Below, in pieces: positions 36,346 to 64,000 of a DNA stretch of 64,000 bases. The DNA comes from Treponemataceae bacterium (lineage in GTDB: Bacteria; Spirochaetota; Spirochaetia; Treponematales; Rectinemataceae), in contig CAXXHO010000005.1 in assembly GCA_963667725.2 (NCBI GenBank), positions 1 to 64,000 of the forward strand. The letters run 5' to 3'. Every line of letters begins with the position of its first letter. The stretch's first letter is position 1. The position numbers and the translations under genes are program-made. The notes under the pieces are model-generated. The model was given only the letters and a program-made list of their open reading frames with translations. It searched no databases and had not been told where the DNA came from.

Positions 36346-36349
36346 CTAG

Positions 36350-46325: not shown

Positions 46326-47738
46326 CTACCTGCCAATGCCGGCAGCGGTCAAGAGCCTCCGCAGCGTCCCAGAATACTGTCTAGCTTCCGTTCCCATTGT
46401 TGAGCCCCGGACCACTCCGCGCGCGAACGCGAGCGTCCATATACCGTGAAATGCATAGGCTATCAAACGAGCTACCGATAACCCGAATGATCCCCAATGC
46501 CCTAAGAAACAGGTCATGCCAATGAAGACCACAGCCCAGGCGAGATTCATCACAAACCCTAGCCACATCCTCCCGGACGCTACGATGACATCTCCCACGG
46601 GCATCAAAATCGTGTAAATACCGGCCGTCGCAAGAACTGCAATGAGCGTCGGCCACCCTGCGGAATATCTAGCTCCGTAGGCACGCATAATATATGGACT
46701 AAATGCCGCGATACCCAAGACTAGCGGAAGTGCGATCACCGCATTGAGACGCATCATGAACGAGATCAACTCCGCCGACATCTTGCTGTCACGCCCGCCT
46801 AACCGGTCCGACAGAATTGGCAGCAACCCACTACCCAGCGCGAGAGGCAGGAAGAGCAGGACTCTGTACCACTGACCGGCGGCGTTGTAGACGCCCATTT
46901 CTGCATACCCGTTGGCCTGGTTTACGAGAATTGCCGAGCACACCCAATTTGCTGGTGCAACCATAATGCCCGCCATCACAGCCGGCACGCTGAAATCCCG
47001 GAGAACCGCAAGCTCTTTCGTCGCATCTCGCCACAAGACCGGGATCCCGGCCCGTTGCGCTTCCGAACGAAGTGCGCATTGCTTAAGGCACCATTCAGCA
47101 ACCCCGCCCACCACTGACCCCACAAGAATGCCCTCCAGCCCCGCCAAATAAAAGCCCCCGAGGGACAATGGGATGTTAAGTAGCCCCGACAAACACTGAA
47201 TCCTCGCAATTGCACGAAAGGCCTCAAATCCCGCCAATCCACCGGCCTGCGCGCCATTCACCGCTCCAAAGAATAGCAAGAGACCGCCGATACGCAGTGG
47301 ATTTGCCAAATTTGGCGCTGCCAAATACCGACCCGCTAGCCACGGCGCCAGAACATAAACGAGGATCGCAAACGCCGCTCCACTGACCGCCGCAGTCATG
47401 TTCGATAGAGCCAGAACCCGCCCAGCGCGGGCCGGATCCCTGACCTTCAACTCCGCAACATATTTCGTTGCGGTGAGACTTAGCCCGAAACCTGCGAAGG
47501 CCCCGAATAAATCTACGCTTGAGATAACTACGCCGAATTCACCATATCCAGCCGGGCCCATTAGTCTTGCCAGGAGAAACGACACCGGAATACCTAGGGC
47601 CTTTGCGCCCACAGTCCCCGCGAAACTCCAAGCGGCACTTCGAACCACGCGCCGCCCCATTGGAAAGCCATTAACGCGTTCAACTATACAGCGCCGTATT
47701 GCGCCGCCCCATCCAACCCTGGCGTCTCTTGCCATCAC
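46326..47738 (-). CDS. wzx: Wzx oligosaccharide flippase
   Basis: LARLMGPAGYGEFG; GLSLTATKYVAE; EMGVYNAA; about 12-14 TM segments. Confidence 0.88.
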   Translation of the reverse strand: MMARDARVGWGGAIRRCIVERVNGFPMGRRVVRSAAWSFAGTVGAKALGIPVSFLLARLMGPAGYGEFGVVISSVDLFGAFAGFGLSLTATKYVAELKVRDPARAGRVLALSNMTAAVSGAAFAILVYVLAPWLAGRYLAAPNLANPLRIGGLLLFFGAVNGAQAGGLAGFEAFRAIARIQCLSGLLNIPLSLGGFYLAGLEGILVGSVVGGVAEWCLKQCALRSEAQRAGIPVLWRDATKELAVLRDFSVPAVMAGIMVAPANWVCSAILVNQANGYAEMGVYNAAGQWYRVLLFLPLALGSGLLPILSDRLGGRDSKMSAELISFMMRLNAVIALPLVLGIAAFSPYIMRAYGARYSAGWPTLIAVLATAGIYTILMPVGDVIVASGRMWLGFVMNLAWAVVFIGMTCFLGHWGSFGLSVARLIAYAFHGIWTLAFARGVVRGSTMGTEARQYSGTLRRLLTAAGIGR

Positions 47739-47805
47739 TCTCCAATCCGTCCAACCCCGCTACAGCCACTTCTCTCGTATGCCATTCTCCTAAGAGCCGC
47801 AGAGC

Positions 47806-49110
47806 TCACCTAGTAGCTGAAATCAACCCTCTCGTTGCTGACAAGAACTGCCCAGCGATCGTCCGAGGGGAAAACCTGACAGCACGTTCGCTCGATGCAG
47901 CCTCTCCCGCCAAGTTGCCCTGGCCGAATACATAGAACAGGCGTGTTATCGCCTTCTGAACATCAACGGCATCATCGCCATCTACACGAATGATCCCGTG
48001 CGTCGAAGCCATGTCAGCCACCACGCCCCGTGCCGGACTCAACGCCAGCACTGGTTTTCGTGCAACGATATAATCTATTAGTTTCGACGGTAAGAAAATG
48101 CCCTCAGACAGCCTCCCTTCCACTAGTACACACACCGAGGCACGCGCGATGTACTCGAGGCTTTTCTCGTAGCTCACACGCTCAACCCATCTGACGCTCT
48201 CACCAAGGCCAAGGTCATCGACTTGCCGGCGAGTCTGATCGTCCGCCGGCCCGACCAGCACGAGCTGCAGGCACTCGCGCTGGATATTAGTTTGATCGAT
48301 AAAGCCCTTGATTCCCTTTAGGAGACCTGTCGCGGACCTGCCGGTCATTTCGGCCGTGCCAAGCTTCCCAGCGTGAACTAACGTAAAACGCTCGCGACAA
48401 CTTGCCTGTTCCGAGCAATTGCCAACGTGGGGGACTATCTCGGCATCGTGCTCAATCCCAGATATCTCGGCGTGGTAGGACTGCAGTCTATCACATGGAT
48501 AGGTGACGACATCGGCGGAGAGTAATGTCTTTCGCAGCCAGTGGTCCGAAAAGCTACGATACAGCAGGGACGCGCTCGTTTTAGCCTGGCCGGGAAAGAG
48601 ATGATAGTCCCATGGATCGTTTATATTCGCCACCCACGGCACCTTAAGGCGCCTCGAACACCAATACCCGCAAACATGAGCTATCATCGGTAGTGAGCGT
48701 GAATAGACAACATCATACGGTGTTCTTGAATGCGACCGGGTCGCCCTGCACACCACGTCGTCTATCCACCGAGCGTAGACCGGTGCGCAATAGTTGAGGC
48801 CAGCTAGCAGTGACCGTGCTCGCTCTCGCCTCGTGTTCAGAGGAATATCTCTGGCAACTCTCATGAGGGGGAGCCAGAGTTCGGACTGGTCAAGGCAGCG
48901 AATCGTTGGAGAACGGAAGTTACTGCAGTGAATAACTGTCACGTCAGCGCCCGATTCCATCAGCCCCAGCACCATCTTCCCGGCGCAGAAGGACTCAGAG
49001 TCGGCCACAGGTGGAAACAGGGGACTTATGCAGAGAATGCGCATTGGACGGTTCCGGAGAGCCGCTTTAGCAATGAAAACGTCGGAATGCCGACTCTGAG
49101 TGGAATACAC
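47806..49110 (-). CDS. GT4-like glycosyltransferase
   Basis: MRILCISPLFPP; VPWVANINDPW; FLPSKLIDYIVARKPVL. Confidence 0.85.
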   Translation of the reverse strand: MYSTQSRHSDVFIAKAALRNRPMRILCISPLFPPVADSESFCAGKMVLGLMESGADVTVIHCSNFRSPTIRCLDQSELWLPLMRVARDIPLNTRRERARSLLAGLNYCAPVYARWIDDVVCRATRSHSRTPYDVVYSRSLPMIAHVCGYWCSRRLKVPWVANINDPWDYHLFPGQAKTSASLLYRSFSDHWLRKTLLSADVVTYPCDRLQSYHAEISGIEHDAEIVPHVGNCSEQASCRERFTLVHAGKLGTAEMTGRSATGLLKGIKGFIDQTNIQRECLQLVLVGPADDQTRRQVDDLGLGESVRWVERVSYEKSLEYIARASVCVLVEGRLSEGIFLPSKLIDYIVARKPVLALSPARGVVADMASTHGIIRVDGDDAVDVQKAITRLFYVFGQGNLAGEAASSERAVRFSPRTIAGQFLSATRGLISATR

Positions 49111-49283
49111 CTCAGTCCACTTTAGAGTTGTCCTTAGACGATGTCAGGAGAACATACCCGGGCACCGTTGTAGGCTTGCGTCACGGTTACCCACACCTTC
49201 GGAAGTTCGTGTTAACAACGACTTCACCTAGATTTAACAAGGACCAGGTTCGCCGCGCTCGGAACACTCGGTCACGTGCAGTG

Positions 49284-50477
49284 TTACGGCATTTCGCTTG
49301 GCGCTAGAGTTCCTGTGTCGGTTGAGTGTTTCTCTGCAGCTAAATGGGAAACGACCACTTTGGTGATGCGTTGTGCCGCAGTACCGTCTCCATACGGATT
49401 CGCCAACGTAGACTTGGACCGGTAATACTCCGCGTCGCTTAGTAGTCGCTCCACTTCGCGACAGATGCTCGCGCGCGACGCTCCCACGAGGGTCGCGCAT
49501 CCCGCTGAAACAGCTTCGGGGCGTTCCGTCGTGCTTCGAGTAACAACGACAGGCTTCCCAAGGCTTGGAGCCTCTTCCTGGACGCCTCCAGAATCCGTGA
49601 GGATCAACGTGGCGCGCTCCATCAGGGCAATAAATGGAAGATAGGGAATGGGCTCGACTAGATGGATATTTGTGGTCCTGTGCCCGCTGGCGCCCAGAAC
49701 TTCGCGCACGACGTCTCGGACGTTAGGATTGGGGTGCACCGGATAAACGAAATGAACACCTGGGAAGGCTCTCGCCAGATCGGCCACGGCACTGCAGATG
49801 GAATGAAGGTTTTCACCATGGCTTTCGCGTCTGTGCCCAGTGATTAAAACTACTGGCACATTTCGCCAATCGGCTGCGAAGAGCTGCTCCAATCCCGGGA
49901 CGGTCGGTGGATTGGCGTGTATGCGTTCAAGGGCGAGAAAGAGCGCATCGATACCCGTGTTCCCAGTTACGAAGACCCTTTCCGGAGGAACGCCCTCGTC
50001 GAGTAGGTTCCGCCGGTTGGTCTCGGTAGGGGCAAAATGCAAAGTAGCCATGCGGCTCGTCAGAACACGGTTCGCCTCCTCCGGCCAAGGGGCATGGAAA
50101 TTCCACGTTCTCAGCCCGGCTTCGACGTGGCCGACGGGGATCCCCCGGTAGAAAGCAGCTAGCGCGGACGCCAAAACAGTAGTGGTATCGCCCTGGACCA
50201 AAACCAACCCTGGCCGCGCACTGCCCAAGTAGCGATCAACACTTGTCATCGCTCGCGACGTCAGTTCGGTCAGGGTCTGATCCGCACGCATGAGGTCCAA
50301 ATCGACGTCGGGCTCAATTCCAAACGCTCCCAGCACCTGGTCCAGTAGGTCCCGGTGCTGGGCCGTAACGCAGACGTGGCATTCGAGCGCATCGCAGTTC
50401 CTTAGGGCAAAGATCAAGGGAGCCAGCTTGATTGCCTCCGGTCTTGTCCCGAAGATCACAGAGATTCTATTGTTCAT
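49284..50477 (-). CDS. wecB: Non-hydrolysing UDP-N-acetylglucosamine 2-epimerase
   Basis: IFGTRPEAIK; VQGDTTT; HVEAGLRT; PEEANR; TDSGGVQEEAP; NPYGDG. Confidence 0.95.
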   Translation of the reverse strand: MNNRISVIFGTRPEAIKLAPLIFALRNCDALECHVCVTAQHRDLLDQVLGAFGIEPDVDLDLMRADQTLTELTSRAMTSVDRYLGSARPGLVLVQGDTTTVLASALAAFYRGIPVGHVEAGLRTWNFHAPWPEEANRVLTSRMATLHFAPTETNRRNLLDEGVPPERVFVTGNTGIDALFLALERIHANPPTVPGLEQLFAADWRNVPVVLITGHRRESHGENLHSICSAVADLARAFPGVHFVYPVHPNPNVRDVVREVLGASGHRTTNIHLVEPIPYLPFIALMERATLILTDSGGVQEEAPSLGKPVVVTRSTTERPEAVSAGCATLVGASRASICREVERLLSDAEYYRSKSTLANPYGDGTAAQRITKVVVSHLAAEKHSTDTGTLAPSEMP

Positions 50478-50579
50478 AGAAGGAGGAAGCGGTTCGGCAG
50501 GGCGCCAAGGTGCATCCAGCAACGATCAGCATCGGCCGGTGAGCATTCGGGATTACTCATGGAACGCTGCGACCCACAC

Positions 50580-52469
50580 TCACCTTCCATGTACTTCCAG
50601 AAACTCCCGATGCCACAACTCGAGTATCGCGAGAGAGAATAATTCCCGGGAAAAGTCACCGCGTCGCTGATGGTCCAAAATCAGATGTTCGATGCAGGCC
50701 TTTTCGAAATAGCCTCTCGCCAAGGTCTTGCGATCAAACAGAATTTCCTGCAACCAGTCCCTCAGTTCGTTTCGCAGCCACGAGGCGTATGGAACCGGGA
50801 AGCCAACTTTTCGACGACGAACTATCTTCTTGGGAACCTGGCGGCCGAGAGCCCTCTTAGCGATATACTTTGTTGTAAAGCCTCGGATCTTGAAGTCGTC
50901 AGGTAGTGAAGCTGCAAATTCCAAGACCTTATGATCTAGCAGGGGAACTCGAAGCTCGATCGAATTGGCCATGGTCATTTTGTCAGCCTTGAGCAGTAGA
51001 TCGTCAGGCAGCCAAGTTTTGCTATCGACGTATAGCATCTGGTCGAGGGTGCTCTGGCCCTTGACGCGAGAGCGCAGTCGATGCAGGGGCTCAACAGCAT
51101 ACTCATGATCAATGGCTCCTGCATATTCGGGCCGATACAATGTTTGATACCACTGTCCCGAGTTGCCGTACAAAGTGCGGCCGTTGTAGTAGTCGGGAAA
51201 CTGCGCATTCATTAAGGGGCCATACCGGGCCAGCGGTTGAAAACGGAACAGCGCGTTCACAATCGAAACTGCTCGAGTGGCAGCTCTATTGAAGGGAGAG
51301 AGGCAGCGTTTCAGGCGTTCCAGCCAAAGGAGATTGCGGTAGTTGGGATATCCAGCAAACGCCTCGTCCCCCCCCTCGCCTGAAAGGACTACCTTGACGT
51401 GGCTGCTGGCCAGTTTCGAGATGTAGTAAAGTGCAACCGCCGGTGGTTCGAAGACTGGCTCTTCCATATGCCAGACGAAACTCGGCATGAACGCGGCAAA
51501 ATCCGCTGCCGAGATGGTCATGTCATAGTGCCGGGAGCCGTACGTTTCCGAGGCCAACCGGGCATAAGGTCTCTCATCCGCTAGCTGCGGCGCTGCAAAA
51601 CCCACTGTGAAGGTGCTGATTTCCTGTTGAGTTCGTCCTGCAGCCAAGCTGAGTACAGCCGTCGAATCCAGGCCGCCGCTCAATAGAATGCCGATCGGAA
51701 CGTCCGCGATCATGTGCAACTCTACCGCTTCGCCAAGAACGTTCAATAACTGCTTCTCAGTCTCCGCTTGGCTAGGAACCTGGCTATCCCTTGAGAACTT
51801 CAGGTCCCAGTACTGATGGACCTTAATCTGGCCATCCCTTTGCAAGAGATATGTCCCAGGGCTTAGCTTTTGCACGCCCTTGAGCAGAGTCTCTTCGCCG
51901 GGCAAGTAGCCAAACTTCAAGAACCGGTCGACCATCTCGGGAGCGATATCCCGCTCTACGGCCGGGTCCGCCAGGATCGCCTTGATTTCGGAAGCAAACA
52001 CCAGCGACTCGCTCGACAGGAGGTAGTACAGGGGCTTGATCCCGAGGCGATCCCTGGCCAATATGAGTGCCCGCTTCTTCTCATCCCAGATCGCAAAGGC
52101 AAACATTCCCCGAAGCTTTTCCAAGCACGCCGTGCCCAGCTCTTCATATAGATGTACGATAACCTCCGTGTCGGTCTTGGTGCTGAAGACGTGACCCCTG
52201 CCCAGAAGAAAGGTGTGCAACTCCCGGAAGTTATAGATTTCTCCGTTGAAGACTACCCAAACGGTCCCGTCCTCATTCGAAAGCGGCTGATGCCCTGTGT
52301 TTAGGTCAATAATCGAGAGCCGTCGATGGCCCAGTCCTATCTGCGGCGCTATATAGGTCCCCTCATCGTCGGGCCCACGGTGCCGAATCGTATCGAGCAT
52401 CGCCCTCAGTAGCGCCGGCGATACTTGGCCCTCACTGTCGTACACTACCTTGCCGCAAATCCCGCACAC
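50580..52469 (-). CDS. asnB: Asparagine synthase (glutamine-hydrolysing)-family amidotransferase
   Basis: MCGICG; HRGPD; HRRLSIIDL; FNGEIYN; LSGGLDS; SGEGGDE; ELRVPLLD. Confidence 0.93.
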   Translation of the reverse strand: MCGICGKVVYDSEGQVSPALLRAMLDTIRHRGPDDEGTYIAPQIGLGHRRLSIIDLNTGHQPLSNEDGTVWVVFNGEIYNFRELHTFLLGRGHVFSTKTDTEVIVHLYEELGTACLEKLRGMFAFAIWDEKKRALILARDRLGIKPLYYLLSSESLVFASEIKAILADPAVERDIAPEMVDRFLKFGYLPGEETLLKGVQKLSPGTYLLQRDGQIKVHQYWDLKFSRDSQVPSQAETEKQLLNVLGEAVELHMIADVPIGILLSGGLDSTAVLSLAAGRTQQEISTFTVGFAAPQLADERPYARLASETYGSRHYDMTISAADFAAFMPSFVWHMEEPVFEPPAVALYYISKLASSHVKVVLSGEGGDEAFAGYPNYRNLLWLERLKRCLSPFNRAATRAVSIVNALFRFQPLARYGPLMNAQFPDYYNGRTLYGNSGQWYQTLYRPEYAGAIDHEYAVEPLHRLRSRVKGQSTLDQMLYVDSKTWLPDDLLLKADKMTMANSIELRVPLLDHKVLEFAASLPDDFKIRGFTTKYIAKRALGRQVPKKIVRRRKVGFPVPYASWLRNELRDWLQEILFDRKTLARGYFEKACIEHLILDHQRRGDFSRELFSLAILELWHREFLEVHGR

Positions 52470-52493
52470 CTTCGCCTCCCCTGGTCCGCAGCT

Positions 52494-53456
52494 TCAGGCA
52501 ACATCAAAGGCCGCCTTCTCCAGCCCAAGTGCCCATCTCAATATGGCCTTCCATTTTGCTGCCGCCATAGATAGGTCCTCGCTGTTCCACCGCGCGCTCA
52601 CGATACAAGATGCCAAGCCAATCAGCAAAAGACGCCCCATGGCACTACACGCCATAGCCGCCCGATACACCGCACCATACCCACGCCCCCGCGTCTTTAC
52701 ACAAAAGTGCTGCACCGCCCTGACCTTCATGATCGTTGCCCATTGGTCGATCTTTTGCTGCCGACTGCTTTTCCCGCCATGGTGAATCATCCTCGCCTGG
52801 CTAATGTAGTAGTTAACATAACCAGCACGGACAACCTTGTAGCACAGGTCGAGGTCCTCCGCATACATGAAGTACTCCTCGCTGAACATGCCAACTTCCG
52901 CGAATACTTCGCGGCGGAGCATCATGCAAGCCCCGGAAACGGCCTCGACTTCGCTTGCCGAAGGACAATCGGATAACAGTGGGCTGATTCCCCACAGTCG
53001 GCTGTTTGGCCAGCGCGATCGTAAGTACGCGACATCCATTAGTTGATTGAGGACCGTCGGAAAACTCTGGATACAACTCGTCTGCACGGACAAGTCACTG
53101 TTTAGCAGCTTACATCCTATAACCCCCGCGTCCGGTAGGGACTTAAGCCGTTCCAGAACGATGTTGATCGTCTGCCCCAACAGCCTCGTGTCGGGGTTCA
53201 GGAAAAGAACGTGATCGCCCGAGGACTGCCTGAACCCGAGATTGTTAGCCCTGGCGAAGCCGAGATTTCGTGAACTCTTGATCACCTTGAGCTCGGAGAA
53301 TTGTTCAACCAGACGGTCACAGTCCTGAACTCGTGACGCGTTGTCAACTACAATGACCTCGAACGAGACTCCGCTTGTGAATTCATAAATACTGGCCACG
53401 CACTCTCGCAGGTAGTCGGTCGAGTTCCAGTTTACGAGAATAATCGACAAATCCAT
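52494..53456 (-). CDS. GT2 glycosyltransferase
   Basis: LSIILVNWN; VVDNAS; NLGFARANN; LNPD; FMYAEDLDLC. Confidence 0.92.
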   Translation of the reverse strand: MDLSIILVNWNSTDYLRECVASIYEFTSGVSFEVIVVDNASRVQDCDRLVEQFSELKVIKSSRNLGFARANNLGFRQSSGDHVLFLNPDTRLLGQTINIVLERLKSLPDAGVIGCKLLNSDLSVQTSCIQSFPTVLNQLMDVAYLRSRWPNSRLWGISPLLSDCPSASEVEAVSGACMMLRREVFAEVGMFSEEYFMYAEDLDLCYKVVRAGYVNYYISQARMIHHGGKSSRQQKIDQWATIMKVRAVQHFCVKTRGRGYGAVYRAAMACSAMGRLLLIGLASCIVSARWNSEDLSMAAAKWKAILRWALGLEKAAFDVA

Positions 53457-53503
53457 ATAACCCTCAATGGCCCACTTGCGGCGCGATTACCTGAACAGCG
53501 GGA

Positions 53504-54376
53504 TCACTGCCAGATACTGTGGCCACCTCGCAGCTTCGCGAGCTGCTCGCGACGCAGGTACCAGATCAACTTCGGGTCATCGACCTGGGGAATATGTTTC
53601 AGGTAGCCACTCACAAATCCATGTGCTAGTGCAAGTGGCCCTACAAGGTAGGGCCTCTTCCAAAGCCGCGATATGCACTTCGCCAACATGAACAGCGGAT
53701 GATATCCCGATATATAATTGGCTCTTCCGTTCTTGACCAGATCCCGCCAATGGCCGTCAGCTGAACCAGTAGGCCTAAGGTGATGGATGTGTACATCCGA
53801 AAAGCTTCTGGTGGCCCACCCCAGCATATTCGCCTTCACCTCATCCAGAGTGTCCCAGCCCGGCGCCGGCCAGAAGCCGCCAATGCCTTTCCAGCAGGCC
53901 CGCCGATAAATCTTGGTGGCCCCTCGAACGTGAAATCGTGGCCCCCCCAACTCTAGCTGCCGGCTACCGTCAGCCATCACGTTGTAGACAACACCTCCAC
54001 CGACCCCCAGGCGCGGCTCACGCTCAAAGTACGCGAGGCACTTTTCGAAGTAATCCGGCTCGAATGCCAAGTCACCGTCCAGCTTGACCATGAACTCCCA
54101 ATCATCGCACTGCAGCGCAGCATATCCATTGTTGAAGGCCTCCACCACGCCGCCACCGGATTCCCGAAATCCTCGATTTCGCCTATAAACGCCGCGTATC
54201 CACGGAACCCGGCGAGCACTCTCCTCTATGATGCTCCGCGTGGCATCCGTTGAACCGTCGTCTACAATGACCCACTCCGCCGGCGGGACCCGCTGGTGCA
54301 CCACGCTCTCGGCCGTAGACCGTAGGTGCGCCTCTTCATTGCGAACAGGCGTGATAATCACGTACCGATTGTTCAT
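53504..54376 (-). CDS. GT2 glycosyltransferase
   Basis: ITPVRNEE; VDDGSTD; KLDGD; GWDTLDE. Confidence 0.92.
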   Translation of the reverse strand: MNNRYVIITPVRNEEAHLRSTAESVVHQRVPPAEWVIVDDGSTDATRSIIEESARRVPWIRGVYRRNRGFRESGGGVVEAFNNGYAALQCDDWEFMVKLDGDLAFEPDYFEKCLAYFEREPRLGVGGGVVYNVMADGSRQLELGGPRFHVRGATKIYRRACWKGIGGFWPAPGWDTLDEVKANMLGWATRSFSDVHIHHLRPTGSADGHWRDLVKNGRANYISGYHPLFMLAKCISRLWKRPYLVGPLALAHGFVSGYLKHIPQVDDPKLIWYLRREQLAKLRGGHSIWQ

Positions 54377-54403
54377 TTGGAGTTGAGGGCGATGATAATA
54401 TGA

Positions 54404-55759
54404 TCACTGAGCATGAGCTTCGAGAACTTCTACCGACTTCCTACCTTCGAGACGCGGAGGTGGTGCCTGAAGTGACGGCGCCGCTGCGGAAACCATAGCA
54501 AGAAAAGAAAACCACCACATCTGCGTCTGGTCGAAGTAGCTCACACCGAAGTAAGCCAGCACATGCGCGAACATCACGGCCCCGAGGCTCCAATATAGCC
54601 ATTGCTGCTGCCTATTACGCTTCGCCAGATCCCTCACCTTGCCGAGCCTGCTAAAGCCTAGAGCTATTACAGCTATAAAGGCGCCGAAGGCCACCAAGCC
54701 ACCCGCTTCCGCTCCTTGCACAAAACCGTTGCACGTGTCCCACATATCAAAGCCCCAGTTGCCGTTCTCACGAGTTCCGATCAACCACCAATCCTTAAAA
54801 TGACGAACGAAGTTGTCAATCAGCATCGCCCGGTGATAAGCATCCGAAGATCCCGTCACATTTACGCGGGCTATGATGAACCACACGGGCGCCTTCATGA
54901 TGAGATCCAATGCCGCCAGCGTCAGAACAATCCCCCAGCGCACCGCTCGCATGTACCTGCGTATAGGCCACAGGAACAGCGCGACAATCCCTCCAGCGAA
55001 GGCCGCAGCTGGAGTGCTCGAAGCGGACAGGTACACCATGACGAGCGAACCCATCATTCCCAGCGCACCTAGTGCCTTTGCCTTACCATGCTTCCATAGC
55101 CAATAGAATAAAGGTGTGAGCGTCGCTCCAAAGCAACCTGCCAGAATGGGATGCGAAAAGGACGCCTGGGCCCGGATCCGGTCAGCACGTACCGCTGGAG
55201 TAACTGGCACGCCGCCGAGATAACCAAACATATCTATCCAGTAGATACGTTCAACGATCATGCACAGGCCAAATATCAGAGCAAGCACCGCGAAGGTTTT
55301 GGCTGCCGTGACGATATCGTCGACGTCTCGAATCAGGTAGCGCAGGAAGAAATACCCGCCGAACGCCTGTATCCAGAACGCGAATTGAAGTGGCATCGCT
55401 TCTGTTTCGCCAAACAATAGTAAGGGAGCTAAGCCCGCATAGAACGCCCATAAGGTGAACGCCCAATCGATTGCACCCAAGCCATTGGGTACAAGCCTAC
55501 CCCCAGTCGTCAGTTTTTGATGGAACACCCTCACACAGCCCACTAGGATCATAATCCGTAGTACCAGCCAGTGAGTGCCCGCAATATAGATCTGCTGGCC
55601 GAGCGGTGTCAAGAAGGTAATCAGGAGGAATGGGACAACTATCTTCCGTCTCGGGAGCGTCAGAACCAGTATGACGCTTAGGACCATCCCTACAAGGACC
55701 ACTGGATGGAGTACCGTCGCTGACGCTCCACCACCATAGTCGAAGTTTTCTGGCCTCAT
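54404..55759 (-). CDS. Wzy-like polymerase / O-antigen ligase-family membrane protein
   Basis: About 11-12 TM; RAQASFSHPILAG; SASSTP; YHRAMLID..WWLIG loop; lies among GT genes. Confidence 0.78.
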   Translation of the reverse strand: MRPENFDYGGGASATVLHPVVLVGMVLSVILVLTLPRRKIVVPFLLITFLTPLGQQIYIAGTHWLVLRIMILVGCVRVFHQKLTTGGRLVPNGLGAIDWAFTLWAFYAGLAPLLLFGETEAMPLQFAFWIQAFGGYFFLRYLIRDVDDIVTAAKTFAVLALIFGLCMIVERIYWIDMFGYLGGVPVTPAVRADRIRAQASFSHPILAGCFGATLTPLFYWLWKHGKAKALGALGMMGSLVMVYLSASSTPAAAFAGGIVALFLWPIRRYMRAVRWGIVLTLAALDLIMKAPVWFIIARVNVTGSSDAYHRAMLIDNFVRHFKDWWLIGTRENGNWGFDMWDTCNGFVQGAEAGGLVAFGAFIAVIALGFSRLGKVRDLAKRNRQQQWLYWSLGAVMFAHVLAYFGVSYFDQTQMWWFSFLAMVSAAAPSLQAPPPRLEGRKSVEVLEAHAQ

Positions 55760-55762
55760 CCT

Positions 55763-56476
55763 TTAGCAGACCGCTCCTTGACCGTTCCGGGACGGTACAA
55801 ATGTCAGAACCACCCCGGCGCTGTCTTCTCGAGTTAAGCTCTCCAAAACTTGATATTCATTCTTAATGTGCAATATAATCTCTCGGTACTTCTCACGATC
55901 GCAGAGCCGCACCATCAGCAGGCCGTCCGGTTTAAGATATTCAGAATACCGCCGGAGAATCCGCTTCACCTGGTACCCCGGAAAGTATTGGAGACAGTCA
56001 CTGAAGAGAATGATTGAGAACAGCTTCGGTGGAACATAAGAGAGAATATCTCCTGCCTGAAAATGGCTCTTTTGCCCTCTTACGGGATCTTGAGCAAGAC
56101 GACGTTCGGCGTTTTCGGCGGCAACCTTCGAAATGTCAACTCCAAGATATTCTCGGAAGTGGCCAGCAATCGCGCCGCAAGTGTAGCCATCGCCGCAACC
56201 CAGATCCAGAATATCGAGGCCTGCGCTGTGCCTGTCTAGGGCTTCATAGGCGATGTCCCGCTCTCGCATAGGCCGTGAGGGGTCCTGTCTCCAGTCCCAA
56301 TGCCCGCTCGCATGTTCGCGGTCCCAGATCCGCTGTTTCAGTGATGCTGTGCCTATCCGTTTTACAACAGCATCTGTCCATTTGCTAAGCTTTCCATTCA
56401 TCACAGCTGTTTTGACCTCCCTAACCGGTCCTCGCCGGAAAGACTTTGGCAGATCAGATCGCCGATCAGGCTCCAT
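55763..56476 (-). CDS. Class I SAM-dependent methyltransferase
   Basis: ILDLGCGDG; GVDIS; LKPDG. Confidence 0.88.
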   Translation of the reverse strand: MEPDRRSDLPKSFRRGPVREVKTAVMNGKLSKWTDAVVKRIGTASLKQRIWDREHASGHWDWRQDPSRPMRERDIAYEALDRHSAGLDILDLGCGDGYTCGAIAGHFREYLGVDISKVAAENAERRLAQDPVRGQKSHFQAGDILSYVPPKLFSIILFSDCLQYFPGYQVKRILRRYSEYLKPDGLLMVRLCDREKYREIILHIKNEYQVLESLTREDSAGVVLTFVPSRNGQGAVC

Positions 56477-57440
56477 CCTCAGAGAAGACGCTCGCCGTTG
56501 CTGATTGTTGCGGCAAGGGACCGGTCTTCATTTTGGGATACCAGGGCGATCGGCGGTATACCGCTCCAGCTGCGCGCCTTAACACTTCGAAGTGGCTATT
56601 ATTTGATACCTCCGAACCAGGAAATGCTGTCTGCATGACGCCGTAATCTGCATCGAGGGCAGCCTGGATTCTGTTGGCTTGCCGCTGCACCTGCCGCGCC
56701 AGCTTTCCTCCCTCAGGCGAAGTCAGCCTCTCAAAGCGCCTCCAGACGCACAGCTCACACTCCTTCAAGGGGCGTTCATTCTCTAGTACCGCACGTGAAA
56801 TGCTGTCTTTGCTCTGCCGCCACACCACGAGGGGGTCAGCGATGAAAGCCCACGGGCCAAGTAACGAAAGGCGGAGCGCTAGATCATGGTCCTCGTCGTA
56901 ACGCAGTGTCGGATCGAATTCCCCAGCCTTCTCATAGGCGCCGCGGCGAATCACCGTTGTCTGGCAAGTCTGCACAAACCGGGTTACAAGGACTTCTGTC
57001 ACATTCCACCACAAGCCGTCTGAGTGTCTCGGGAACAAAGTGGCGTTGTCGAAGGACGTATTGTGCTTCCCTATTACCCGTTCTAGCAACGCATTGCTTA
57101 TGCAACACGGAACGGCATCTCCAGCTCTCTGCAGAACCGCGGCGCACCGGTCCAAAAAGGCAGGTAGCCACACATCGTCCGAATCAAGAAACGCAAGCAG
57201 GGTTCCTCGCGACATTCGGGCCCCAGCATAGCGGGCCGCAGCTGGCCCGCCATTTCTCTGATGAAGGACGCGGATTCTCTCACCATAGCGCCGGAGCACG
57301 TTTCGCGTATCATCGGTTGATCCGTCATCAACAACGATAAGCTCGACGTTCGAGTATGTCTGCGTTAATACGCTTTCAATCGCTCGGCCGACTGAGCGTC
57401 CTCGATTGTAAGTCGGAATAACTACGCTTATGAGAGACAT
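56466..57440 (-). CDS. GT2 glycosyltransferase
   Basis: SVVIPTYNR; VDDGSTD; FLDSDD; EDHDLALR. Confidence 0.92.
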   Translation of the reverse strand: MSLISVVIPTYNRGRSVGRAIESVLTQTYSNVELIVVDDGSTDDTRNVLRRYGERIRVLHQRNGGPAAARYAGARMSRGTLLAFLDSDDVWLPAFLDRCAAVLQRAGDAVPCCISNALLERVIGKHNTSFDNATLFPRHSDGLWWNVTEVLVTRFVQTCQTTVIRRGAYEKAGEFDPTLRYDEDHDLALRLSLLGPWAFIADPLVVWRQSKDSISRAVLENERPLKECELCVWRRFERLTSPEGGKLARQVQRQANRIQAALDADYGVMQTAFPGSEVSNNSHFEVLRRAAGAVYRRSPWYPKMKTGPLPQQSATASVFSEDGA

Positions 57441-57451
57441 GTGCCGATATC

Positions 57452-58423
57452 TTAGAGAGCATAACGCCGTTCGTCAACATCTCGACGGCTGCGCAAACGA
57501 GAACCCAGCCAGATCCACACTTCCACTCCGACATGACCAAATAATGCAGCGACGAAAAACGCGACCGACTTTAACGAGAAACCGAAACGAAACTGTTGCA
57601 ATGCCAGGGTACTCACCGGCTCACCCTTTCGAGCCAGCGCTCTGCAAAGACCCCTGACACCATGAGCGTGCGATCTCGGCCATTGCTTGCGCGCGTCATT
57701 CCTCGCTATCAAAGAGTAGGCATCGACTCTGGCGCGGAAATAGTCCTCCGAATATCTTCCGGCGAGGTCGCTTGAACTGGCAAGAAGGTCGCTAGTCCTA
57801 TATATCTTGGTCACCGTTGCGGAGACGGCAGCAAACCTATATTGACAAGCCACCTGAACCCCAACCAAGAAGTCTTCACTGTGCCGCAAACCCTCGCTGA
57901 AGCAATCCACCGCCAAGAGGGCAGCTCTTCGAATGATGCTAGTCTGAACTAACCCAAATTGAAACGGGTGATGTACACTCCAGATGTCGCTGAATACTTG
58001 CATATTTCCGGCCATTTTGAGCCCATGTCGCTCAAAGAGGCTTATCGGTTCGCTGCCGTCCTTGATTATTAACGCGTCCCCGAATATCCACGCTACATTT
58101 GCGGGGACCAGCGCAGCTGCCTCAAGCAGTCTTCCAGTCCGGTCAGGCAACCACTCATCGTCGCTATCCAGAAATGCAATCCACTCGCATTGAGCTTCCC
58201 GCACTGCTCGGCGACGTGCCCCGGAGACACCCGTATTGTCCTGGCTAACAACTCGTACTCGTTTCCCGTACCGTGACCTGATACTCTGGGCGCTGCCATC
58301 CGTTGATCCATCGTCAATGACAATTACTTCGTCTACGGGGTGCTCCTGAGAGAGTATACTGTCAATCGCCCGTATCACCTGCGTGCGGCGATTGTAGGTC
58401 GGTACCAGCGCAGCAACGTTCAT
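57452..58423 (-). CDS. GT2 glycosyltransferase
   Basis: VPTYNR; IDDGSTD; FLDSDDEW; SEDF. Confidence 0.92.
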   Translation of the reverse strand: MNVAALVPTYNRRTQVIRAIDSILSQEHPVDEVIVIDDGSTDGSAQSIRSRYGKRVRVVSQDNTGVSGARRRAVREAQCEWIAFLDSDDEWLPDRTGRLLEAAALVPANVAWIFGDALIIKDGSEPISLFERHGLKMAGNMQVFSDIWSVHHPFQFGLVQTSIIRRAALLAVDCFSEGLRHSEDFLVGVQVACQYRFAAVSATVTKIYRTSDLLASSSDLAGRYSEDYFRARVDAYSLIARNDARKQWPRSHAHGVRGLCRALARKGEPVSTLALQQFRFGFSLKSVAFFVAALFGHVGVEVWIWLGSRLRSRRDVDERRYAL

Positions 58424-58631
58424 GTGTGCTTTCTTGGGGGATCCTCAGTAAAGAGGACGGGGGGGACGGTCGGACACCCTCTAGAGAACCCGCCCGGCGC
58501 GGCACAGCCACGCCGCAAACGGCGGCCACGGGACCCTGGACTTCAGCAGAAAACTTGAAACTGAACGGATTTCGTGTTTCTTCACTGCTTTGCTGCTTGG
58601 ATTCGGGTAGTCCGAATTCTAACAGGCGAGG

Positions 58632-60215
58632 CTACAAGCCGCCCGTGCCAGCGATGGCCGTCAAACCCGCAGGCGCACTTGGAGGAGCGCCGAAGTACTG
58701 ATAGGCGCCGATATCCCACGGTCCGCTTGTTGGCCGTGGTTTGCCAGCCGCGTCATAACATAACGCGCCGATCCCGGGATTTGGCTGTCCATCGCACAAG
58801 CCGTAAAGGTTAGCCCCAGCCGAGATAACCGGAGAGCCAGCATTGGGCCTGTAATTCACAGTCAGATTAGGATTTGTTGTGATGCCATGAGCGTCGAAGC
58901 CGAGAGCCTTCCACGCCGCAAAAGTCGAATAGGTGGAGTTATTGTAAAACCAGCGCGAGACGTTGTACCAAATATTGTAATCCGATGACTGCAGCCCAGC
59001 GGCTGTGGCATAAGTTGCTTGGGCGGGAGACGGTGACCAAATATTGTTGGTCAACACTGCCTTCGCCCCAGACGAGTTTGGACCATACAGCATCCCGGCA
59101 ATTAGAGTATTGTTATATACTCTGGGGCCGTTTGGCATATTAAGAATCGAGATCACACCGTTACCGCAGCTTGAGCCAGATTGGTCGATAACATTATTGA
59201 ATATCCACGGTGCGTCAATGGTCCCAGCGCTGGAGGACATGAAAATACCTGCGGTGCAATGCGACCCGCCAAAATTTCCATAAATATAGTTATTGTAATA
59301 TGCAATCGGGGCACGGATGGAATCGCCAGTGCTCTCCGCCCAGAAATAGATCCCGTTGTGGTGCTGGTACGAATCACTCGGGTCATCCCAATTCTGGAAG
59401 TCGTGGATACGGTTGCGATACACCAGCAATCCTGTCAGGGATGAAGCTCCATCTCCAAATCCCGCTACACCGAAGTTAATATTCGATATTTCATTGTCGA
59501 AGACCGACACGTTGGACATTCCGGCTGGCGTATACTCCGTGAACACACCAACCCTAACGTCGTGGATTGTGTTGTTATGGACCGATAGTCCGCTACCGCC
59601 ATTCAGAGAAACTCCTGCACTCTCGCCGTTCCCGTTGTCTTCTGTGGCAGCGTGGACATAAATGTTAGAAACCGTGAGGTTCTTGATTTCGATCTGCGAG
59701 GCGTTCTGCGTCCCAACTCCAGCGCCTACATAGGCGGAGGATGTATATGAACACGCTCCTCCTGAGCAAGCGGTACCAGGGCTTCCCGCTAAAGTGGCGC
59801 GGATGGTTCCGTTCGTTCCTCCATCGACGACCACGTATGAGACATTTCGGATTCCAATGACCGACACACTGCCCCAGTAGGGCGATGTCAAGACAGCGCC
59901 AGGCTCAAAGAGCAGGGTGACAGGATTACCGGCACTCCCCCCGCCTTTGAATGACAGGTAATCACTTGATCCAGCGGTAGGTCCCGTGAACGTACCGCAG
60001 AGATGTACGGTAGTCCCGGGCCCGATTTTGTTCGTCCCCGTCCCCCAGTTGCCGGTGGTATTGAAATAACTCACCGCGTAGGCATTAGCGCAACTACTAC
60101 CATTGTTCGCCCCGACGGAGTTCTGCGCAATATATACATCGTTCGCCCTCACAACTCCAGAAGCGAACACCAAGCTGACCATTCCTAGTATCAACCGGGA
60201 GCCGTTCGAGAACAC
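58632..60215 (-). CDS. Secreted right-handed beta-helix (pectin-lyase-like) protein with choice-of-anchor-Q-like C-terminus
   Basis: Signal peptide from GTG 60215 (start approximate); GPGTTVHLCGTF; many .NN.I repeats; SPVISAG..WDIGAYQY; tail PPSAPAGLTA. Confidence 0.82.
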   Translation of the reverse strand: MFSNGSRLILGMVSLVFASGVVRANDVYIAQNSVGANNGSSCANAYAVSYFNTTGNWGTGTNKIGPGTTVHLCGTFTGPTAGSSDYLSFKGGGSAGNPVTLLFEPGAVLTSPYWGSVSVIGIRNVSYVVVDGGTNGTIRATLAGSPGTACSGGACSYTSSAYVGAGVGTQNASQIEIKNLTVSNIYVHAATEDNGNGESAGVSLNGGSGLSVHNNTIHDVRVGVFTEYTPAGMSNVSVFDNEISNINFGVAGFGDGASSLTGLLVYRNRIHDFQNWDDPSDSYQHHNGIYFWAESTGDSIRAPIAYYNNYIYGNFGGSHCTAGIFMSSSAGTIDAPWIFNNVIDQSGSSCGNGVISILNMPNGPRVYNNTLIAGMLYGPNSSGAKAVLTNNIWSPSPAQATYATAAGLQSSDYNIWYNVSRWFYNNSTYSTFAAWKALGFDAHGITTNPNLTVNYRPNAGSPVISAGANLYGLCDGQPNPGIGALCYDAAGKPRPTSGPWDIGAYQYFGAPPSAPAGLTAIAGTGGL

Positions 60216-60399
60216 CTTAATCACCACCTTTTTGGGTCGATTCGCCCTATGTGCCACGGCGCGCGCACCGCGTCGGAGAGCATTCGCCCAAACAGAATGA
60301 TTATAGTAGAGCAAAGGCGGTGTTCCCGATATTGAAAATGGTTGTACTTTCACTGCTAACGTCGGAGAGGCGGCACTGCCAGATATTCCTCCACTCGAA

Positions 60400-61266
60400 T
60401 CACTCCCCTTGCTCGGCCGCACGGCGCAACTGCGGCTTCCACATCTTCGACGTGAGCTGTATTGTGTGGAGCCAGTCGTACCCGCCCTCCAACTTTGCCT
60501 TGAGAAACCCGCTGTCGTCACCGGAGTTTACCGGAAGGCGCTCCAAAACGCAGCGGTCGCTGCGCCGGCTGAGTCGGCCAATGATTGTCGAAACCCCGTT
60601 GCAGTAGCCAGCCGCGATCAGCATCTCGCGAAATTCTCGCTTGAATTCGCGGTTGGCCTCCGGGAAAGCGTAAGGATAGGAGAACGATCGGACCGGTGCG
60701 CCCAACCTGTCTTCCACCTCGGTCCTTGAGCACCACAACTCGCGCTTGACCGATTCCTTTGGGAGAGTCGCCAATTGAGGATGCGTGACCGTGTGAGATC
60801 CAAATTCGATGCCGGCATTCTGCAATTCCCGAACATGGCTCCAAGTCAGGCATTCCGTGCCGTTGAACGCCTGCGCCGTGTCGCCGATATAGGCCGTCGG
60901 GAGAAAGACGGTCGCGGTGTAGCGGAACGCACTCAGGACCGGAAAGGCTTCGGTGTAGAAATCCTCGTATCCATCATCGAACGTGAGGACAACCGCCTTT
61001 CTCGCATTCGGGGATGGCGCCTCGATTCTCTGGATAGCTTCATCGAGATTGATCGCCTCGTATCCATTCCGCGCAAGATACTTGATTTGGTTCTCGAAAA
61101 TCGTGGGGTCCGTGCACGTCCGAAAATATGGGCCTCGGCCCCTTTCCTCTTCCCGCGAAATGCTGTGGTACATCAGGATGGGAATCCCCGGCCGCGGTCC
61201 AGCCAGACGCTGTAAAGGATAGAAAAGCCCGAGGGTAACGATCCTGTCCGGACGAAACTTCAGCAT
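60400..61266 (-). CDS. Polysaccharide deacetylase (CE4/NodB)
   Basis: PILMYH; LTFDDGY; GSHTVTHP; FSYPY. Confidence 0.93.
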   Translation of the reverse strand: MLKFRPDRIVTLGLFYPLQRLAGPRPGIPILMYHSISREEERGRGPYFRTCTDPTIFENQIKYLARNGYEAINLDEAIQRIEAPSPNARKAVVLTFDDGYEDFYTEAFPVLSAFRYTATVFLPTAYIGDTAQAFNGTECLTWSHVRELQNAGIEFGSHTVTHPQLATLPKESVKRELWCSRTEVEDRLGAPVRSFSYPYAFPEANREFKREFREMLIAAGYCNGVSTIIGRLSRRSDRCVLERLPVNSGDDSGFLKAKLEGGYDWLHTIQLTSKMWKPQLRRAAEQGE

Positions 61267-61299
61267 TTGAAAGGCGACCTCCCCTTCAAGGAATGTAAG

Positions 61300-62529
61300 T
61301 TACACCCGGGCAGCGGTTGCCGCGCGCCGAACTTCCTCCCGCTCTGTCCTGGACGAGAGGAAGCCCATTATGCCCGCAGAGACCCATACCTGCTGCTCAC
61401 CGGACAACTGGGGGAACATCGGCAACGAGACTATTTCTGGCGCAACCTTCTCCGCTACCGGATAGTCTCCCGGACTTGGACCGAGCCCTTCATAGGCCTT
61501 CTGTAGATGGAGCGGTATTGGATAGTGAACCGCGGTGGCGACGCTTGAGTTGGCCATGTGCCGCATGAAGGCGTCCCGGCCCTGTACTCGGATGGCGTAC
61601 AGATGGTATACAGCTTTGGTCCATTCGGGTTTGTGCGGGACCAACTCCGCATGCCCGGCCTTGATAAACAACTCCCGGTATCGCGCTGCCGCTTCCCGCC
61701 GCTGCTCATTCCACTTGGCCAGGTGCTTCAGCTTCACGCTCAGGATTCCCGCCTGAATCGCATCCAGCCGCCCGTTGAACCCTTCTACGTCGTGGTAGTA
61801 CTTTCGGCTCTGCCCGTGGTCACGCAGCATGCGGATCTTCCGCGCAATCCCCTCGTCGTTGGTCGTCACCGCACCAGCTTCCCCGCAGGCGCCCAAGTTC
61901 TTTCCCGGATAGAAGCTGAATGCCCCGGCACTGCCCATCGATCCGGCTTTCCGCCAGCGCTGCTCGCGCCGCGAGAAATACTCGGCCCCATGCGCTTGGC
62001 ACGCATCCTCCACCACAACCAGGCCGAACCGCTCCGCTAATTCCAGAATAGGGTCCATGTCCGCCGGTTGCCCGTAAAGATGCACCGGGACCACGGCCGA
62101 CACGCGCAATCCTAGCCGCCGGTTGATCACCGCGCCTTCCGCATCGATGAAGCACTTCTCTTCCAGGTATCCCCGCAACTTCTCGGGGTCCATGTTGTAC
62201 GTTCGTTCGTCAATGTCCACGAAATCTGGACGCGCACCGGCCTGGGTGATCGCCTCGGTAGTCGCGATAAACGTATTCGGAACCGTGACGACAATGGAAC
62301 CCTGCGGCACTCCGGCAGCCATCAAGGCGAAGCGCACTGCATCCGTGCCGCTGCCCACTCCCACACAATGTTCGGTCTCGCAGAATGCGGCGAACTCGCG
62401 CTCGAAGTTCTGAACCATCGGACCGCCGATGAAGCCAGCGGTATCGAGCGCTTGGTTGAACACAGCCACCAGCTCCTCGCGAAGTTCTGCGTGGGGTGTT
62501 ACGAGATCAAGGAACGGAATCGGTGTCAT
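61300..62529 (-). CDS. DegT/DnrJ/EryC1/StrS sugar aminotransferase
   Basis: GSGTDA; PVHLYGQ; EDACQAHG; SFYPGKNLGACGEAG; NGRLDAIQA. Confidence 0.95.
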   Translation of the reverse strand: MTPIPFLDLVTPHAELREELVAVFNQALDTAGFIGGPMVQNFEREFAAFCETEHCVGVGSGTDAVRFALMAAGVPQGSIVVTVPNTFIATTEAITQAGARPDFVDIDERTYNMDPEKLRGYLEEKCFIDAEGAVINRRLGLRVSAVVPVHLYGQPADMDPILELAERFGLVVVEDACQAHGAEYFSRREQRWRKAGSMGSAGAFSFYPGKNLGACGEAGAVTTNDEGIARKIRMLRDHGQSRKYYHDVEGFNGRLDAIQAGILSVKLKHLAKWNEQRREAAARYRELFIKAGHAELVPHKPEWTKAVYHLYAIRVQGRDAFMRHMANSSVATAVHYPIPLHLQKAYEGLGPSPGDYPVAEKVAPEIVSLPMFPQLSGEQQVWVSAGIMGFLSSRTEREEVRRAATAARV

Positions 62530-62568
62530 GAAATCACTCGCTTCTGAAAGTCCCAAATCGACAGCGTG

Positions 62569-63045
62569 CTACAAGATCCGCAACACGCGGCCCGGCACAC
62601 CTGCAACAACCGCGTTTGGTGGAACGTTGTGGGTCACCACGGCACCGGCGCCGATCATAGCGCCCTCGCCGATCGTGACATTTGCCAAAATCGTAGATCC
62701 TGACCCGATCGACGCACGCTTCTTTACCAGCGTCGGCGCCACAATCCAGTCTTGTCCCTGTTCTTGCAACTCGCCCGTTGGACTCGTCGCCCTGGGATAG
62801 ACGTCGTTGATGAACACCACCCCGTGACCCACAAATACCTCATCTTCGATCGTCACGCCTTCACAGATGAAGGTATGGCTGGAAATCTTGCAGTTCTTCC
62901 CGACGCTGGCGTTCTTCTGGATCTCGACAAACGCGCCGATCTTGGTGTTGTCCCCAACCTCGCAACCGTAGAGGTTGATGAACTTCGCCAGCTTCACGTT
63001 CGCGCCCAGCTTCACGTCCGGGGCAATCGCCAGGAATTCGTTCAC
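62569..63045 (-). CDS. Hexapeptide-repeat N-acetyltransferase (WbpD/WlbB-like)
   Basis: GTG start overlaps the upstream TGA; IGAFVEIQKNASVGKNCKISSHTFICEGV; IGAGAVVT..VVAGVPGR. Confidence 0.92.
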   Translation of the reverse strand: MNEFLAIAPDVKLGANVKLAKFINLYGCEVGDNTKIGAFVEIQKNASVGKNCKISSHTFICEGVTIEDEVFVGHGVVFINDVYPRATSPTGELQEQGQDWIVAPTLVKKRASIGSGSTILANVTIGEGAMIGAGAVVTHNVPPNAVVAGVPGRVLRIL

Positions 63046-64000
63046 AGCTCCACCGGCTTTCCGCGCTGCTTCAATGACTGACAAGCTGCTTCCAGAATGC
63101 GGACCACGCCCAGCCCCGCGCAGCCATCGTTGAAGGGAGTCTGGTTTCTCTCGACACACTCGACGAAATACTTCGCTTCGGCCTTCAACGCTTCGCCTTG
63201 CTCCACCTTCGGGATCCACACATCCCCGGAGCGGTAGCTCACTAGCAGGTCGTAAATACCGTGGCCGTTGGCAATGTCGACGCCTTTGTCGTAGACCTTG
63301 ACCTTCTCGTCCGCTTCCAGATCGTTCCAGACCACCATCTTCTTTTCGCCGCCGATCAGCGTGGTCCGCACCTTCACCGGAGAGAGCCAGTTCACGTTGA
63401 TGTGCGCCAGCATGCGGTCCTTGAAATAGACGGTGATGTAGGCCATGTCCTCGAGGCCGTTCAAATGGCTCTGGCCGGTCGCCGCTACGGCCTCTGGCTC
63501 AGCATCGAGGAGATAGTTCATGATCGAAAGGTCGTGCGGGGCCAAGTCCCAGACCACGTTCACGTCGTGCTGGAACAACCCCAGGTTCACACGCGTGGAG
63601 TCGTAGTAGTAAAGCTTGCCCAGAACGCCGTCGTCCACCAGTTGCCGGATCTTCCTGACAGCCCCGGTAAACAGGAACGTGTGGTCTACCATGATCCGCA
63701 GGTTCTTGCTCAGGGCCAGGTCAATCAATTCCGAGGCCTGATCCGCAGTCGATGTGAAAGGCTTTTCAACAAAGACATGCTTGCCGTTTTCAAGGGCCGC
63801 TTTGGCCAGCTCGAAGTGGGTCCAGACAGGCGTAATCACCGCGACCGCGTCGATCACGGAGGACCGGAGAACCTCCGACACATCGCTGGTGGTCCGGACA
63901 CCAGGATGGTTCTTGCCGGCGCGGGAGAGCGCGGCAGGGTTGGAATCGCATACCACGGCCAGCTCACAACCCTCAGCGGAGTGAAAATTGCGGGCCACAA
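63042..64000 (-). CDS. Gfo/Idh/MocA NAD-dependent oxidoreductase (5' end outside window)
   Basis: GKHVFVEKP; MVDHTFLF; WDLAPHDLS; NWLSPVKVR. Confidence 0.93.
   Translation of the reverse strand, partial: VARNFHSAEGCELAVVCDSNPAALSRAGKNHPGVRTTSDVSEVLRSSVIDAVAVITPVWTHFELAKAALENGKHVFVEKPFTSTADQASELIDLALSKNLRIMVDHTFLFTGAVRKIRQLVDDGVLGKLYYYDSTRVNLGLFQHDVNVVWDLAPHDLSIMNYLLDAEPEAVAATGQSHLNGLEDMAYITVYFKDRMLAHINVNWLSPVKVRTTLIGGEKKMVVWNDLEADEKVKVYDKGVDIANGHGIYDLLVSYRSGDVWIPKVEQGEALKAEAKYFVECVERNQTPFNDGCAGLGVVRILEAACQSLKQRGKPVEL

Follow-up and report, generated by a model that had tools for sequence, protein, structure and literature searches.

The window analysed here, a stretch of DNA of 64,000 nucleotides, contains an exopolysaccharide locus with two genes whose products look like complementary parts of one domain. 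A secreted right-handed β-helix protein (the cargo) ends in a segment resembling strand A of an Fn3 domain, and a dockerin-like protein (the adaptor) carries an Fn3 domain lacking this strand. The question is whether the C-terminal tail of the cargo (the plug) could complete the domain of the adaptor (the socket), so that two separately encoded proteins are joined. The features concerned are collected in Table 1.

Table 1. Positions in the window of the features discussed in the text.
Feature	Position	Strand	Remarks
Secreted right-handed β-helix protein (cargo)	58632..60521	minus	Longest frame, true start probably downstream; model pLDDT 85.8
C-terminal Fn3 A-strand tail (plug), 17 residues + stop	58632..58685	minus	Tail residues 58635-58685
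Choice-of-anchor Q domain directly ahead of the tail	58695..58865	minus	NF041518, E 3.6e-5, 23.9 bits vs cut-off 25
Fn3 lacking strand A (socket), residues 97-178, His98 at start	20715..20960	minus	Model and structural matches
Linker VTGTGTT, 4-13 residues to strand B	20961..20981	minus	No strand in model
Dockerin-like domain with an intact first and a degenerate second calcium loop; Cys at four invariant or near-invariant positions	20982..21152	minus	PF00404 below cut-off
Cohesin-like + TIG + Solibacter C-terminal domain (TIGR03437) protein, directly upstream of the adaptor	21315..22460	minus	PF00963 24.5 bits vs cut-off 24.1 (borderline); TIGR03437 E 4.7e-56
Exosortase	22457..23362	minus	PF09721 E 1e-41
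PrsT-like TPR protein, candidate rival receptor for a C-terminal peptide	9866..12121	plus	TIGR02917 328.6 bits, over cut-off
Exopolysaccharide genes around the cargo gene: flippase, glycosyltransferases, epimerase, amidotransferase, deacetylase	46326..64000	minus	

The Two Putative Partners in the Window

The cargo ORF (58632-60521, minus strand) has the C-terminus ...DIGAYQYFGAPPSAPAGLTAIAGTGGL, followed by a TAG stop; its terminal stretch before TAG, tail included, is PPSAPAGLTAIAGTGGL. The first-pass annotation had read this end as a lone Fn3 strand A, which is borne out by the end of the sequence and by conservation of the tail pattern in 87 of the 119 best cargo homologues (best 119 of 824). 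The window tail runs nine residues past the core Leu, i.e., four more than the five found in 80 of 88 tails of the family (homologues plus the window copy). In the single-chain model, the last 19 cargo residues are without secondary structure (pLDDT 75, then 65). The top folds retrieved with the model by Foldseek are GH136 lacto-N-biosidases (E 1.8e-10, TM 0.5, 15-16% identity), with a further match to Pel9A (E 5.8e-7); no Pfam family, including GH136 and PL9, was matched in the profile search. Judging by the fold match, the cargo could be a carbohydrate-active protein. No promoter or terminator was found near its gene.

The adaptor ORF (20712-21248, minus strand) encodes a signal peptide, a Cys-containing dockerin-like part (helices 46-57 and 74-84 in the model) and an Fn3 domain from residue 97. 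This domain begins with SHSVALSW, and no PxxPxxL segment precedes it. The strands of the model (100-103, 112-120, 139-142, 150-159 and 171-174, none earlier) represent B-G only. Structural search matches are filled by the Fn3 part, and 49 of 50 start at model residue 94-97, which corresponds to residue 16-19 of single Fn3 chains. Membership of the Fn3 family is indicated by the fold and by invariant W104 (B-strand Trp), Y115, Y151 and Y153 (C-strand Tyr, F-strand Tyr corner); PF25833 is Fn3_SaeA_3rd in the Atlas, where only generic Fn3 clusters were returned. The closest solved structures are Fn3 modules of Xyl5A of C. thermocellum (3MPC, 5G56) and of chitinase A1 (1K85), with Z 11.8-12.5, rmsd 2.5-3.2, 79-80 residues and 38-39% identity (3MPC: Z 11.8, rmsd 3.2, 80 aligned), and their own first ~16 residues have no counterpart in the socket. 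Strand A, the seventh strand, is missing from the chain by sequence, model and structural alignment, as had been claimed from the letters alone. Folding of the domain by means of its own CVTGTG segment, named beforehand as a finding that would speak against docking, is not seen in the model, where this segment does not appear as strand A.

An Fn3 profile of 30 stretches from fetched loci (28 intact and 2 A-less domains caught by the pattern) aligns the adaptor to positions 8-93 with 82.6 bits and the window tail, weakly (-0.5 bits), to positions 1-11; the overlap at 8-11 is the linker TGTG. Searched against the 21,797 stop-to-stop frames of the assembly, the profiles of tail and adaptor have a single match each, both inside the window.

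Conservation of the Tail

None of the 119 cargo homologues, which are of similar length, contains an Fn3 motif or continues into a whole Fn3 domain. The tail pattern fails in 32 of them, several of which end in a dockerin (P0044, P0104, P0116), a T9SS tail (P0096), a hydrophobic end (P0018, P0027) or nothing; choice-of-anchor D domains occupy the tail position in some further homologues.

A 30-position tail profile, blind to stop codons, was searched against 1.84 billion representatives and gave 277 matches at E<=0.001, a few of them being whole Fn3 repeats. Among the best 150 of the 277, 139 lie within five residues of the C-terminus, these proteins being members of different 50% clusters. 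The end point is exactly five residues after Leu in 137 of the 139, a count biased toward this length by the tails from which the profile was built, and the last residue is mostly Q, N or H. No Fn3 motif occurs elsewhere in these 139 proteins, and 7 of the 11 internal matches read as A strands of whole Fn3 domains. Among 66 proteins longer than 300 aa, mostly from Terriglobia and most with visible signal peptides, the tail ends 16 BLAST clusters. It usually follows a choice-of-anchor Q domain, and unrelated C-terminal domains also precede it. The DNA pattern of tail plus stop was found at no fewer than 120 loci, Acidobacteriota accounting for 77 of the 80 named; among the matches listed, 2 of 120 end in TGG, which is not a stop.

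The natural whole Fn3 domain of L173 reads PAAPTGLTATAGNASVALSW, which places the split point between tail and socket in the A-B loop. In P0004, P0036, P0041, P0069, P0113 and P0429, a different Gly-rich C-terminus with alternating hydrophobic residues replaces or follows the usual tail; possibly it is a second C-terminal tag.

The Socket Subfamily

The linker between the last dockerin Cys and strand B spans 4-13 residues in 119 of 120 adaptor homologues and contains an A-strand motif in none of the 120. Across the fetched loci, 170 C-terminal Fn3 domains were classed by pattern as A-less and 11 as intact. The A-less domains carry His two positions before strand B in 142 of 170 cases and Tyr or Phe ahead of the G-strand Ser in 112 of 170, versus 0 of 11 intact domains for either residue. 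Adaptor homologues end at strand G, with no donor strand beyond it among the matches listed.

Complete socket carriers number 138, of which 84 are ASH/choice-of-anchor D stalk-like, 22 have little beyond the domain and 23 are dockerin-like, the last share being enriched by the search design. A lipobox-like motif was recognized in 28 of the 138 by a crude pattern. The system is wider than the earlier reading, since choice-of-anchor D (ASH) stalks and lipoproteins, rather than dockerins, carry the majority of sockets. Sockets behind a mere Ser/Gly linker are found at L257, L360 and L376. Enzyme-like proteins ending in a socket are encoded in L295 (51-1757) and L179 (6286-8538), and enzymes could dock on enzymes there. 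P0127, in which a dockerin-like domain precedes a tandem of two A-less Fn3 domains, is a possible two-socket adaptor. In other Acidobacteriota (L379, L380, L381, L382, L384), an A-less Fn3 domain stands right behind the signal peptide, without the His and without a tail on the same chain (L384 runs off its contig).

Distribution of Tail and Socket among Genomes

Co-occurrence of the two parts, proposed as a check by the first-pass annotation, was examined in 150 genomes from the order of the central genome G001 and found to hold. Among 27 genomes with tail-profile matches, G001 itself, G318 (whole Fn3), G311 (doubtful frame) and G314 (no tail read out) were left out, and the tail was verified at the stop in 23. 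A socket was called from an adaptor-profile match at E<=1e-20, an imperfect call, as the matches in G052 and G121 are whole Fn3 domains. Such a strong match is present in 18 of the 23 tail genomes versus 16 of the 127 others (Fisher p 5e-10, with kin not independent). The remaining five tail genomes hold an A-less Fn3 domain just below the cut-off (E 1e-17 to 1e-20), so that all 23 have one. Subtraction of G265 and G313, marked as unpublished, leaves 17 of 22 versus 15 of 126.

Of the 16 genomes with a socket match only, G052 has a whole Fn3 domain, G366, G351, G261 and G284 proved to be tail-bearing, and G313 was outside the check. In the ten socket-bearing genomes that remain, no tail was found within the 20-200 kb examined, nor in two of them in a whole-genome search, which is insensitive because it missed the real tail of G261. 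Sockets are more numerous than tails, and no tail lies near the N-terminal A-less Fn3 domains of G037, G101, G156 and G175. A stricter DNA pattern for the tail remained at chance level in 251 genomes of the phylum (12 matches outside G001 vs 15 in controls); only those in G174, G183 and G228 have the look of canonical tails, and these three genomes belong to the 11 that are A1-positive apart from G001. A loose DNA pattern was dropped, as control matches exceeded forward matches.

Gene Linkage and Fused Forms

In the window, the cargo and adaptor genes are 38 kb apart within one exopolysaccharide locus. On 12 of 15 long contigs with both parts (11 without the one from a targeted look), the nearest socket is at most 40 kb from the tail, whereas random placement gives 0.6 expected and at most 5 in 20,000 runs, with positions entered by hand. 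The socket gene is directly upstream of the tail gene in G362 (two pairs), G384 (two pairs) and G385, and in G351 a gene for a signal peptide plus socket adjoins a tail gene convergently. Simple fission would not be expected to produce the order found here, strands B-G followed by cargo plus A. Wherever a socket has Ile for Leu in strand B (six cases), the adjoining tail has Val for Leu, and one further Val tail (G286) goes with a Leu socket; this pairing is a hint only and may reflect one or two events. No Fn3 domain lies within 6 kb of the tail at any of the 120 listed loci of the tail-plus-stop pattern (80 with flanks), and no tail was found in 79 metagenome loci, most of them short, around adaptor-type Fn3 domains. 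The linkage may merely reflect shared residence in polysaccharide loci.

Three of 53 longer cargo homologues run from choice-of-anchor Q into a whole Fn3 domain (P0429, P0403 and P0440; one recognized by pattern, two by eye). A single chain in P0429 comprises the cargo, the A strand, strands B-G, which match the adaptor at 37% over 60 aa, and a pair of choice-of-anchor D domains. In P0104 the cargo family is fused directly to the dockerin-like domain of the adaptor (54% over 65 aa). Each of the two unites in one chain parts that the split system would bring together.

A Possible Cohesin-Dockerin Tier and Locus Context

The first-pass annotation had proposed a chain from a cohesin anchor through the dockerin-Fn3 protein to the β-helix enzyme. 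In its favour, the PF00963 score of the cohesin-like protein lies just over the cut-off (Table 1). On the other side, the dockerin-like domain of the adaptor scores 14.4 bits with PF00404 against a cut-off of 22.9, and the cohesin-like protein has neither a membrane segment nor a PEP-CTERM end, its TIGR03437 domain being an uncharacterised one, so that it is at most a putative anchor. Weak PF00404 matches (E<=0.1) occur in 84 of 107 members of the adaptor family, and the second calcium loop, degenerate in the window, is complete in P0104. A cohesin-like domain is present in 7 of the 79 adaptor-type metagenome loci, most of which are short. Beyond the window, cohesin-like stalk genes occur twice more, at C5:66336 and C5:76696. 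The two proteins encoded in L399 (C5:66336-71960 and 75699-81588) are long repeat stalks with the cohesin-like domain at the N-terminus, and the second seems to be frame-shifted into a TIGR03437 ORF. The full chain of the window is a tentative reading, a little short of an even chance.

Features of exosortase substrates (PEP motif, membrane helix, basic tail) are absent from the cargo, the adaptor and the cohesin-like protein and present in the ORF at 16125-16865. The window also encodes, within the exopolysaccharide locus, a hybrid protein of 2519 aa (24676-32235) with AMP-binding, ketosynthase, acyltransferase, carrier and condensation domains, which perhaps acylates the polymer. A DUF2341/GH43-like repeat protein of 2864 aa (34581-46220) is interrupted close to its end by elements of the IS5 and IS701 types, with a remnant of 131 aa with the same repeats behind. 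An NHL-repeat protein ending in TIGR03437 (6761-9841) and a LamG and VanZ-like fusion (12125-13288) were also noted.

Origin of the Window

On contig C5, the initial 188 kb are set apart from the remainder of the assembly by their tetranucleotide composition, the change falling near 188 kb; another odd stretch lies at ~390-550 kb (GC 32-39%). All three TIGR03437 matches fall in the first 77 kb of the contig. The DNA of the window was found in none of 20 relatives, and contamination of the assembly is 6.26%. Contig C5 is probably chimeric, and the window is probably acidobacterial DNA mis-joined into the assembly of another organism, or a large transferred island. If the window is foreign to the assembly, the count of one plug and one socket covers a fragment of less than 190 kb.

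Proposed Mechanism and Alternatives

The tail and the A-less Fn3 domain are likely to form a joint by strand complementation in trans, with predicted binding of plug to socket. Secreted cargo, mostly with carbohydrate-active β-helix folds, would end in an Fn3 strand A cut at the A-B loop, and strands B-G would be supplied by other exported proteins, be they lipoproteins, ASH/choice-of-anchor D stalks, further enzymes or dockerin-like adaptors. Once both partners are outside the cell, by presumed routes of export, the tail would pair with strand B, its Pro, Leu and Ala being buried against the B-strand Trp, and the socket His would be placed next to the free end of the tail, where contact could be made. 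A seven-stranded domain would thus be rebuilt from two chains and the cargo tethered. Within the window, the β-helix protein probably pairs with the dockerin-Fn3 adaptor, for which one of three cohesin-like proteins is a possible further partner. The earlier interpretation is supported in part: conservation, the exact end point, co-occurrence, gene adjacency and fused homologues all speak for the tail as a docking tag, and the cohesin step is the weaker portion.

The tail could instead be a free C-terminal recognition or sorting signal for another receptor (an export machine, for example, or the PrsT-like TPR protein), with the A-less Fn3 domain self-sufficient as a six-stranded fold and both merely located in polysaccharide loci. 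The fixed length and the polar last residue fit recognition of an end equally, a TPR gene is present within the locus, and sockets occur without detected tails. The Tyr or Phe before the G-strand Ser, frequent in A-less and absent from intact domains, could cover an empty site, and strands A and G of Fn3 pack last around the B-C-E-F core according to PMC4330816. Such a signal leaves unexplained why it should have the form of an Fn3 A strand that stops at the A-B loop, why an A-less Fn3 domain is present in all 23 tail genomes, and why direct gene pairs and the one-chain P0429 exist; we consider it improbable. A cap function, in which the tail folds back on its own β-helix or choice-of-anchor Q domain, would suit its usual place behind the latter domain. 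The disorder of the tail in the single-chain model, the unrelated domains that also precede it, and its failure or replacement in 32 of 119 homologues speak against a cap, which is scarcely credible.

Completion of the adaptor domain in cis by V90-T91-G92, with no donor needed, draws on the position of V90, 14 residues before the B-strand Trp and inside the 13-18 spacing of intact domains, on the alignment of the Fn3 profile from T91, and on one structural match reaching residue 84 (rmsd 5.2). It is opposed by the linker of 4-13 residues without PxxPxxL in 120 homologues, by the lack of a strand at the linker in the model and by the three sockets that follow only Ser/Gly, and appears very improbable. 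Truncation had been foreseen as a simpler account, with the tail a functionless leftover of an Fn3 domain. Homologues with a whole domain do exist (3 of the 53 longer ones, 0 of the 119 of similar length), and the window copy has drifted by four residues; the cut form, however, is fixed and far commoner. That 137 of 139 proteins, each representing a different 50% cluster, stop at an identical point, and that the tail recurs in 16 sequence clusters, largely refutes this account, to which we give almost no weight. The joint formed in trans remains the preferred reading.

In a broader picture, on which we are evenly divided, Terriglobia would possess a modular surface assembly, in which a 12-residue C-terminal Fn3 strand clicks interchangeable polysaccharide-modifying enzymes end to end onto lipoprotein stalks, enzymes and dockerin adaptors in capsule loci, with cohesin-dockerin binding as a second tier. 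It would be a diderm counterpart of the cellulosome, resting on a naturally split Fn3, and a ready-made tag/catcher pair. If true, one of the most frequent C-terminal domains among surface proteins of Terriglobia would acquire a function, as would an unannotated tail shared by hundreds of secreted proteins (the 277 representatives above), and it would be seen how an abundant soil group positions enzymes on exopolysaccharide. Donor-strand complementation would be extended from pilus polymers to cargo docking on the Fn3 fold, and the natural pair would be small (one peptide and one 9 kDa domain).

Comparison with Known Systems

Display of carbohydrate-active cargo by cohesin-dockerin binding is known from the cellulosome. 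The likeness consists in a modular C-terminal tag on such cargo that would dock on a scaffold, and in the presence of a dockerin-like/cohesin-like pair. In contrast to the cellulosome, a strand of 12 residues would serve as the tag, one calcium loop is intact in the dockerin-like domain, which also has disulfides, and the host is diderm. The tail fills the same C-terminal place as PEP-CTERM, T9SS tails and dockerins, the anchors of choice-of-anchor Q/D proteins, but it differs from them in matching no NCBIfam model (four tail segments, E<=1) and in having neither a membrane segment nor a PEP motif.

Detachment and swapping of the terminal strands of FN3, which pack last, are described in PMC4330816, and a strand-swapped engineered FN3 is represented by PDB 4M6A. 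The swap in these cases takes place between whole engineered domains, whereas two naturally separate genes are concerned here. Fibronectin strand addition and Ig folds without strand A are treated in the available excerpts of PMC8471655 and PMC12051499, which do not deal with the tail/socket system. In the full-text literature, whose coverage excludes most subscription papers, no account was found of an Fn3 A strand acting as C-terminal tag, or of an A-less Fn3 domain acting as receptor, in Acidobacteria.

Donor-strand complementation occurs in pili, namely chaperone-usher Pap/Fim and the Pam pili of Patescibacteria (PMC13278184). An incomplete β-sandwich is completed there by a strand of another chain, as is predicted here: in the window pair, the acceptor fold lacks one strand in the model, and the matching strand is a terminal extension of another protein. 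Unlike in Pap, Fim and Pam pili, the fold is Fn3 and the donor would be the C-terminus of an enzyme-like cargo; the window proteins that were scanned included neither a chaperone nor an usher. A subunit of donor-strand pili (Pap/Fim, Pam, type V) has both groove and donor and polymerizes, whereas plug and socket reside on separate proteins and would give a joint, not a polymer. The tail and socket would work like donor-strand complementation but do not constitute a pilus.
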